DNA of 64,000 nt from Escherichia phage A6-6. The stretch lies in sequence record PQ510734.1, one strand, 5' to 3'. This document shows, one piece after another, positions 17,382 through 17,586 of the stretch (the first letter of the stretch is position 1; each line of letters starts with the position of its first letter). Made by a program: the position numbers and the translations under genes. Below the pieces are notes generated by a model. The model was given only the letters and a program-made list of their open reading frames with translations. It was not told where the DNA came from and ran no database searches.

Positions 17382-17513
17382 GGTATCTAGGCCTTTCCGG
17401 GCCTCTCTAGGCATCATTTAGTTTATACCCTTTATAATATATTATCCTACCTTTTAATTGCCCCTCCTGACCCTAGAATTCCCTAAAAATTTTTAAAATT
17501 TTTTCACAAAACG

Positions 17514-17543
17514 GTTTACATCCCCGTTCTTCCATGGTACTAT
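17514..17543 (+). promoter_or_regulatory. T4-type early promoter
   Basis: GTTTAC 17514-17519, 18-nt spacer, TACTAT 17538-17543; AT-rich upstream; conserved leader ACAACTATCAACTAC. Confidence 0.6.
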
Positions 17544-17586
17544 ACAACTATCAACTACTGATATAGAAAACAACTTGGAGAACGAA

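Follow-up and report, generated by a model that had tools for sequence, protein, structure and literature searches.

Repeated sequences of Escherichia phage A6-6 are very probably T4-type early promoter cassettes that are shuffled by recombination

The locus lies in a stretch of 64,000 nucleotides from Escherichia phage A6-6 (sequence record PQ510734.1; the whole stretch is referred to as the window), with a tRNA cluster just upstream, and consists of a promoter-leader cassette at 17490–17589 on the + strand followed by the orthologue of the T4 gene e.8. The cassette, orthologous to the T4 site at 70696, opens with an UP-like tract (17490–17513), followed by GTTTAC (17514–17519), which overlaps the sigma-70 −35 box TTTACA (17515–17520), and by TGG (17535–17537) and the −10 box TACTAT (17538–17543), the 15 nt from GTTTAC to TGG being the same spacing as the canonical 17 nt from TTTACA to TACTAT. 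The predicted transcription start (+1) is the A at 17550 and the leader covers 17550–17586 with a Shine-Dalgarno sequence, GGAG, at 17577–17580 and the ATG at 17587; the stretch between TGG-TACTAT and this GGAG contains ACAACTATCAACT. Upstream of the cassette is an intrinsic terminator, a stem-loop with a T-run (17354–17386, + strand), of which a duplicate is found at 16799–16831 on the far side of an inserted ORF of 157 aa. The 60-mer singled out by the sequence-only reading, 17497–17556, falls within the range 17491–17586 that it had given, which begins in the UP-like tract and ends immediately before the ATG.

A near-identical cassette is located at 59712–59802 on the same strand (GTTTAC 59736–59741, −10 box 59760–59765, predicted +1 59772, GGAG 59790–59793, ATG 59800). 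The recurrence of 17491–17565 at 59713–59787 that had been proposed was recovered as a copy of 17492–17556 at 59714–59778, with 94% identity over 65 nt, ungapped, and with 13 of the 15 spacer bases matching. In the record of phage Lutter the same 30-nt stretch upstream of e.8 has been annotated as a promoter by the submitters. Below, individual copies are referred to by the first base of GTTTAC or its variants, which makes these two copies 17514 and 59736.

The source of the window is a Tequatrovirus with 99.3% identity to Escherichia phage ADUt, hundreds of other T4-like records also giving matches, and according to blastn the window is colinear with T4 from ~88.4 to 22 kb, in reverse orientation. 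A search of IMG/VR with the e.8 protein gave 10 loci. When comparing e.8 orthologues across phages two whole promoter-leader alleles appeared, TGGTACTAT-ACAACTATCAACTACTGATACAG… and TGATACTAT-AGACCTATCAAAACAACAGAG…, corresponding to the two start-region variants, ACAACTATCAACTAC and ATAGACCTATCAAAAC, that had been named from the window and that are both present there.

A search of the window for GTTTAC-N15-TGGTAYTAT with at most two mismatches gave 17 matches, all but one on the + strand, compared to 0.35 ± 0.59 in shuffled sequences. At least 15 copies of GTTTAC-N15-TGnTAYTAT are present on the same strand, each 20–48 nt (modal 21–22) upstream of the ATG of an ORF, and in all 15 cassettes a Shine-Dalgarno sequence precedes the downstream ATG; the sequence upstream of the promoters is AT-rich. 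Core matches inside genes at 21818, 55130 and 19960 (− strand) may be chance or weak sites. Apart from the two copies described above, the cassettes, all on the + strand, are situated at 14427–14511 (trna.4 orthologue; a chimera, with a 7-bp inverted repeat ATAGGGT/ACCCTAT around the −10 box), 17829–17921 (GTGTAC variant with the start type ATAGACTTATCAAAAC, upstream of an extra 54-aa ORF), 18048–18130 (e.7 orthologue, ATG 18128), 18440–18523 (e.6 orthologue, ATG 18521), 21903–22013 (internal-protein gene, ATG 22011, with a leader of 48 nt) and 24931–25014 (regB orthologue, ATG 25012, Shine-Dalgarno sequence AAGAGGAG). Further along they are found at 29127–29211 (ATG 29209, directly preceded by a terminator at 29118–29135), 29918–30002 (a 34-aa ORF, orthologue of mobD.2; a 15-bp stem with G·U pairs encloses the −10 box), 32678–32772 (an extra 66-aa ORF; start type ATAGACCTATCAAAAC, terminator at 32653–32672 preceding), 32947–33030 (GTATAC variant, nrdC.10 orthologue, ATG 33028; a 12-bp stem encloses the −10 box), 34379–34463 (ATG 34461), 37361–37445 (ATG 37443) and 45437–45523 (ATG 45521). 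The cassette at 34379 has the same type of start and leader as the one at 17490, and its spacer CCTCTGTGGT is complementary to ACTACGGAGG, which contains the Shine-Dalgarno sequence. The related versions that had been pointed out before the ORFs at 14509, 29209, 34461, 32770, 18128 and 45521 are thus all among the cassettes, each with its ATG 20–32 nt past the predicted +1.

Conservation outside the core was analysed on sites chosen by the core alone, avoiding circularity, and the information content of each position was compared with a 99.9% null; an iterated PWM of 70 nt was discarded as over-fitted, recovering its own seeds only. Among the core-selected window sites G−36 is found in 15 of 16 and A−32 and C−31 in all, and the −10 region, 17 bp from the −35 box, consists of TGn plus a hexamer in which T−12, A−11 and T−7 do not vary. 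Outside the core the null is exceeded by A−40 (1.27 bit), by C−3, C−2, T−1, A+1, T+2 and C+3 (0.83–0.90 bit each) and by C+9. A−40 is present in 15 of the 16 sites and belongs to an UP-like region in which −41, −42 and −44 are A-rich, as is also the case in T4; the conservation of the −48 to −41 region in these sites is weak. Since these non-core positions exceed the 99.9% null, the conservation does extend past the −35 and −10 hexamers, as the sequence-only reading had claimed, in the form of A−40, the UP-like tract and a block from −3 to +3.

When the genome of T4 was searched with the same core pattern 32 matches were found, all on the early-transcribed (−) strand, and their flanks have the same profile as those of the window, including the start block from −3 to +7 and the extra conserved positions. 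The 17490-type cassette occurs in eight or nine copies in T4, before ndd.6, motA, frd.3, e.8, nrdC.10, nrdC.8 and imm.1 and as a variant before cef. The GenBank and RefSeq records of T4 that were used carry no promoter features, only a misc_feature note naming Pe133295, a designation that is reproduced when +1 is placed 36 nt from the start of GTTTAC. The early promoters of T4 (Pe) have been described as combining UP, −35, TGn and −10 elements, along with "additional regions of consensus" (PMC2988021); GTTTAC occupies −36 to −31 in them and the stretch from −40 to −44 is rich in A (PMC1524935). The A6-6 sites share with them (Liebig & Rüger 1989; Wilkens & Rüger 1994; reviewed in Hinton 2010, PMC2988021) GTTTAC(A/T), the 17-bp spacing, TGn and a −10 box of the TAYTAT type, as well as an A-rich UP element with invariant A−40 and extra consensus near the start, and they are located on the same strand before the same orthologous genes (e.8, e.7, e.6, regB, trna.4 and nrdC.x). 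Nothing essential differs from T4, although A6-6 has the additional cassettes 17853 and 32971, lacks the ipI promoter and carries a cassette allele unlike that of T4 at the nrdC.10/nrdC.11 position. As the T4 consensus profile, the orthologous positions, the naming of Pe133295 and the annotation in Lutter all agree, the sites are identified as T4 Pe, in line with the early promoter role that had been suggested for them. It is very probable that the repeats of the window are T4-type early promoters in cassettes of fixed geometry, shuffled by recombination as in the PeSL model; the promoter activity, the position of +1 and RegB cleavage in A6-6 are predictions from orthology and consensus.

Arbiol et al. 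2010 (PMC2839356) described the PeSL cassettes of T4-like phages as composites of an AT-rich tract, an early promoter, a stem-loop, a Shine-Dalgarno sequence and an ATG, through which ORFs are inserted, deleted or replaced and which also give rise to mini-circles. Comeau et al. 2014 (PMC4122927) later extended the model to PST/T4, giving TTTACW-N17-TAYWAT as the consensus and AG(n)A-loop-TC(n)T as the form of the stems. The A6-6 cassettes have the same parts, the consensus given for PST/T4 and the same setting, among small non-essential ORFs where indels and replacements in close relatives are bounded by cassettes, but differ in that some of them have no adjacent stem-loop. The association with a stem-loop holds for about half of the cassettes: stem-loops are found upstream of the promoter at 29118, 32653 and 59631 and overlapping the −10 box in 14451, 29942, 32702 and 32971, and terminators abut 29151 and 32702. 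The terminator at 59631–59653 (+ strand; AGGGACC-TCCG-GGTCCCT plus T-run), ~85 nt upstream of the −35 box of 59736, has the PeSL form AG(n)A…TC(n)T, as has the one at 32653. The 17514 copy has no stem around its −10 box and its terminator lies 137 nt upstream; likewise, RNA folding of the copies at 17490 and 59712 gave no stem enclosing the −10 box.

Comparison with T4 revealed several small ORFs that are absent from T4, all on the + strand and all belonging to PHROG families of unknown function, with no Pfam match. Three of them lie between or behind cassettes: a 54-aa ORF (17919–18083, phrog_5461) between the Pe cassettes 17853 and 18072, a 66-aa ORF (32770–32970, phrog_6200) between 32702 and 32971 and a 78-aa ORF (59800–60036, phrog_4189) between the promoter-leader of 59736 and imm.1, with blastn boundaries against T4 at 17850/18117, 32742/33018 and 59807/60047, respectively. 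The fourth, of 157 aa (16873–17346, phrog_2280), is situated between the two copies of the terminator stem-loop. Among 595 phages compared over the region of the 54-aa ORF, homology stops at 17850 or at ~18082, the two −35 regions, and the arrangement of the window is found in 28. Of 654 records, 55 have the 66-aa ORF, which most of the others lack, some carrying different inserts, and at the 59.8-kb locus 317 of 535 records match the window over at least 80% of the query, T2-like phages having unrelated sequence of similar length there. The cassettes 32678–32772 and 32947–33030 form the left and right boundaries of a module shared with another genus: window 32680–33033 (UP-promoter-leader-ORF-promoter-leader-ATG) shows 94% identity to a segment at a different locus in Mosigvirus JS09, between RB69ORF134c and RB69ORF133c, the homology running from the UP element to the start codon of the next gene.

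The junction at the ipI position falls inside a cassette. The gene ipI is absent in the window, and 14433–14514 aligns to two T4 promoters, the one before ipI and the one before trna.4; in a three-way alignment the upstream half of 14451 corresponds to the ipI promoter and the downstream half to the trna.4 promoter, with the crossover within the common ATTTCACAAAGTTGTTTACATA. In other phages this point is occupied by assorted internal-protein genes, 300–370 bp. Both PeSL papers (PMC2839356, PMC4122927) trace the case of the IP loci of T-even phages back to Repoila et al. 1994; as relayed by these two papers, gain, loss and exchange of IP genes take place there between repeated early promoter-leaders. 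The ipI presence/absence junction of A6-6 resembles this polymorphism, and beyond the IP loci the same process is seen at e.8–e.7, nrdC.10–nrdC.11 and 43–imm.1. Using a strict definition, 4 of 19 events between the window and T4 touch a cassette compared to ~1.2 expected, a modest enrichment; other events involve homing endonucleases (segB, mobB, mobC and mobD), the nrdD intron and terminators. The dispersed homology that had been proposed to serve cassette shuffling is thus matched by synteny breakpoints and by a cross-genus module that end inside cassettes, and the genes flanked by cassettes do vary between related phages, with presence, absence and replacement alleles across hundreds of them. 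The substrate for this shuffling of modules is provided by identical blocks of 25–90 bp, which recur in one orientation between small non-essential genes. Amplifications and deletions in T4 described by Srikant et al. 2022 were also considered; these use microhomologies of 6–10 bp and not promoter cassettes specifically.

To separate selection from common ancestry 29 promoters from T4, the window and T4-like contigs of IMG/VR were assembled so that their spacers are at most 6/13 identical and the spacer columns are at null information; an exact-pattern scan of IMG/VR includes chance matches in unrelated contigs, and for the statistics only sites with A−40 and AT-rich sequence upstream were kept. 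In this set T−1, A+1, T+2, C+3, C+6 and T+7 are still above the 99.9% null, and as they are conserved among promoters with mutually unrelated spacers the start block is kept by selection. It is absent from 17 middle-promoter-like sites with a MotA box in T4 and is thus specific to the early class. Where the spacers of two promoters agree at 10 or more of 13 positions, 12.4 of the 15 start-block bases are common to the pair, and in 17514 and 59736 non-consensus spacer bases are shared as well; such spacer identity together with shared non-consensus bases indicates recent paralogy of, or exchange between, those copies. The similarity is therefore of two layers, a family-wide consensus under selection and near-identical recent paralogues that have been spread or homogenised by recombination.

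The leaders are 20–48 nt long, G-poor and end in GGAG plus an A-rich stretch. GGAG is found within the Shine-Dalgarno window of 9 of 13 promoter-proximal ORFs compared to 9 of 89 other ORFs on the + strand (Fisher p = 1e-5). RegB, which inactivates early mRNAs in T4 (Uzan & Miller 2010, PMC3014915), acts with S1 on a target of single-stranded GGA(G) and an A-rich stretch, 11 nt in total (Durand et al. 2006, PMC1702504), and sequences of this kind occur in the A6-6 leaders (GGAGAAUAAAA, GGAGAACGAAA and similar), the regB orthologue itself sitting behind its own Pe cassette. The likeness to the RegB/S1 sites of T4 consists of GGA(G) with an A-rich stretch in the Shine-Dalgarno region of promoter-proximal early genes together with the presence of a regB orthologue; it concerns a predicted target and covers the 3' end of the leader only, not the block from −3 to +9.

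The sequence-only reading had proposed a shared function of the 5' leader and suggested structure prediction, and one way of understanding the conserved transcribed part would be a structured or otherwise specific 5'-UTR element such as a stabiliser hairpin, a riboregulator or a protein-binding leader. Positions +1 to +9 are indeed conserved, one subfamily shares ATCAACTACTGATAC(A/G)GA… as far as the Shine-Dalgarno sequence and a weak 5' hairpin of 4–5 bp, (A)UCA-ACUAC-UGA(U), could form in this ATCAACTACTGATAC subfamily. However, this hairpin is lost in the close paralogues 59736, 34403 and 14451, and when six leaders were folded from +1 they came out unstructured, with minimum free energies of 0 to −1.2 kcal/mol, all six worse than shuffles (positive z-scores), while an Rfam scan of the window gave 11 tRNAs only and no leader family. 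The conservation moreover begins before +1, at −3, and no feature of the leader other than the single-stranded GGAG Shine-Dalgarno sequence is supported statistically, which makes such an element quite unlikely. What stands of the proposed leader function is the unstructured GGAG/A-rich Shine-Dalgarno end, enriched at promoter-proximal genes, and not a structured RNA element; a special function of the leader RNA, beyond the known unstructured GGAG/RegB logic, is not supported. As the block from −3 to +3, weaker to +9, straddles the start it is more economically read as a promoter or initiation signal than as a leader element, and for such a Pe start block no defined function was found in the accessible literature. 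It could be proposed that the block (C−3 C−2 T−1 A+1 T+2 C+3 … C+6 T+7) is a distinct early-promoter element, acting as operator for a phage factor in selective early shut-off or determining the response to ADP-ribosylated polymerase (Alt/ModA-modified). The block being Pe-specific and absent from middle-promoter-like sites would fit, its information exceeds the Y−1 R+1 preference of ordinary sigma-70 promoters and reviews leave the mechanism of both early-promoter shut-off and Alt stimulation unexplained (PMC3014915; PMC2988021). A plain role in initiation and escape accounts for the data equally well, though, and in the mutational analysis that PMC2988021 cites the Alt effect could not be assigned to any one position, so that this proposal is considered unlikely.

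The recombination part of the interpretation has its own alternatives. If the promoters had been optimised independently for RNA polymerase, no exchange between copies would be needed, and since the consensus including the start block survives unrelated spacers, selection alone could maintain much of the similarity. Pure convergence would however not lead distant copies to share non-consensus spacer bases (13/15 for 17514 and 59736, and identical spacers in T4 146875 and 55384), nor does it explain the chimeric cassette at the ipI junction, the boundaries of the cross-genus module within cassettes or the breaks in homology at −35 regions across the phage population, and it is regarded as very improbable. 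Hardly more probable, and if anything less so, is an origin of the repeats in a small mobile element of the MITE or integron kind, of which they would be the ends or remnants and which would move by means of a dedicated site-specific recombinase. Modules of one ORF bounded by repeats do move among loci and genera, and Arbiol et al. allow for "homologous or site-specific" recombination, but the copies have no terminal inverted repeats and no target-site duplications, all are in one orientation at a fixed distance to the ATG and the crossovers vary, from UP/−35 at ipI to the ATG at 59807 and the terminators at 16831/17352. Such variable crossover positions fit general homologous recombination.

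For the T4-type early promoters shuffled by homologous recombination the following course of events may be proposed. Each cassette consists, in order, of an A/T-rich UP element, the −35 box GTTTAC(A/T), a 17-bp spacer, TGn, TAYTAT, the start block (C C T A+1 T C a a C t), the leader, GGAG and the ATG. From established sigma-70 and T4 biology, the unmodified host sigma-70 polymerase would contact four elements together (alpha-CTD with UP, sigma-4 with −35, sigma-3 with TGn and sigma-2 with −10), and this four-element binding would give Pe the advantage over host promoters during the first minute after infection. The start block would fix initiation at the A seven nt after the −10 box and probably help the escape from a tightly bound promoter, and the unstructured leader would permit immediate translation until, a few minutes later, RegB and ribosomal protein S1 would cut the single-stranded GGAG/A-rich site and inactivate the early mRNAs. 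Through homologous recombination between cassettes promoter-ORF modules are deleted, inserted and transferred, as shown by the comparison with other phages and in agreement with the published PeSL model.

Both the promoter and the shuffling interpretations are correct and already published (PMC2839356, PMC4122927), and the results add no new biology, the role of the start block being the only residual point of interest. The cassettes mark the early transcription units of A6-6 and the points of accessory-gene exchange, and are of use in annotation, in predicting the small ORFs whose expression begins at once upon infection and in engineering T4-like phages, being natural units of strong promoter and ribosome-binding site as well as natural recombination sites.

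A separate observation concerns inverted repeats that enclose the −10 box in many of the promoters, with the 5' arm in the spacer and the 3' arm in the discriminator/start region. [quoted passage not shown] 2010, PMC2839356); a literature search on dyad symmetry at T4 early promoters gave nothing beyond that paper, and in the accessible literature no explicit description of −10-enclosing stems in Tequatrovirus outside the IP loci was found, so that these repeats are at most a small extension of a known kind. The arms differ among promoters yet remain complementary, and in T4 contiguous stems of 14, 12, 10 and 10 bp are found. Among 76 non-redundant promoters across phages 19 (25%) have their −10 box within an inverted repeat of 7 bp or more, compared to 2.7% for non-cognate arms (p ~1e-13), and close variants show 11 compensatory double changes. 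G·U and A·C substitutions in the arms, counted to see whether the stems act as RNA on the sense strand, were nearly equal in number, at 9 and 8. As RNA the stems at 14451, 32702, 32971 and 29942 have −14 to −19 kcal/mol (z −2.5 to −5), but since +1 is located within the stem or past it, the stem can form in read-through transcripts only. This recalls the control of e, soc, 49 and I-TevI in T4 (PMC3014915), where the hairpin of long transcripts is removed by an internal promoter: the stems of some cassettes enclose the −10 box or pair the spacer with the Shine-Dalgarno sequence, and the cassette's own transcript starts inside. In the T4 cases, however, the internal promoter is late and the ribosome-binding site is sequestered, whereas in A6-6 the promoter is early and most stems do not include the Shine-Dalgarno sequence. 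Pairing of the spacer with the downstream Shine-Dalgarno sequence, as in 34403, reaches at least 7 bp in 10.5% of cognate pairs compared to 2.7% of non-cognate pairs.

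When analysing the early promoters it was found that in a subset of them the −10 element is enclosed by an inverted repeat, with examples in the window at 14457–14489, 29949–29984, 32710–32736 and 32981–33010 and in T4 at positions 57990, 20612, 73939, 133331 and 6630. The arms vary in sequence from promoter to promoter while their complementarity is kept, and repeats of at least 7 bp are present in 19 of 76 promoters, compared with 2.7% when non-cognate arms are paired. Such a stem could form only in transcripts reading through from upstream. Inverted repeats around the −10 are of the kind already described for the promoter-early stem-loop cassettes of phages RB49 and phi1 (Arbiol 2010, PMC2839356), while for T4 proper, outside the internal protein (IP) loci, no explicit mention of them was found in the accessible literature.

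Some cassettes instead have a promoter spacer that is complementary to the Shine-Dalgarno sequence downstream of the same promoter, as in the early promoter cassette 34403 (34418–34452, CCUCUGUGGU with ACUACGGAGG) and in the regB promoter (24964–25006, TCCTCTT with AAGAGGA). Complementarity of at least 7 bp occurs in 10.5% of cognate pairs versus 2.7% of non-cognate ones, a modest enrichment. Through this pairing, which is similar to the logic of T4 e, soc and 49, the Shine-Dalgarno sequence would be sequestered in read-through RNA but free in the promoter's own transcript.

Matches to the core pattern (GTTTAC-N15-TGGTAYTAT, at most two mismatches) also lie inside coding regions, at 21818–21847 and 55130–55159 on the plus strand and 19931–19960 on the minus strand. 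These have neither UP tract nor start block, and T4 retains them at orthologous sites (66607 and 31462). Weak internal activity or coincidental matching is the probable explanation.

The module consisting of a promoter, the 66-aa ORF and a second promoter (32680–33033) is 94% identical to a segment of Mosigvirus JS09 (L139, 2001–2353), where the gene neighbourhood is different. Taken together, the identity and the differing neighbourhoods indicate a recent transfer of this module between Tequatrovirus and Mosigvirus.

The homing endonuclease genes mobD, mobC and mobB, together with the I-TevII-bearing nrdD intron, are missing or replaced relative to T4 (~30674–31637, 42673–42676, 43952–43972 and 48749–48774), which explains several of the synteny breaks located away from promoter cassettes. 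The tRNA cluster (15464–16481) holds 11 tRNA genes compared with eight in T4, and segB, the homing endonuclease gene inside the T4 cluster, has no counterpart in the window.

The IP region also differs from T4, between 22050 and 22818. Two tandem IP genes are 83% identical across 54 nt (21993–22046 and 22327–22380), sharing the Shine-Dalgarno sequence and the initial ~10 codons (MKTY(K/Q)EFI…); this shared start is probably the conserved N-terminus that targets IP proteins to the capsid.

Terminators with the form GGGCTTCGGCCC recur at 46318–46344, 54667–54693 and 56837–56863. The copy at 56837 coincides exactly with the boundary of a 220-bp insertion (56620–56840) that T4 lacks, reminiscent of the GGGC/GCCC end points of deletions reported by Mosig et al. 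1998 (cited by Arbiol 2010, PMC2839356).
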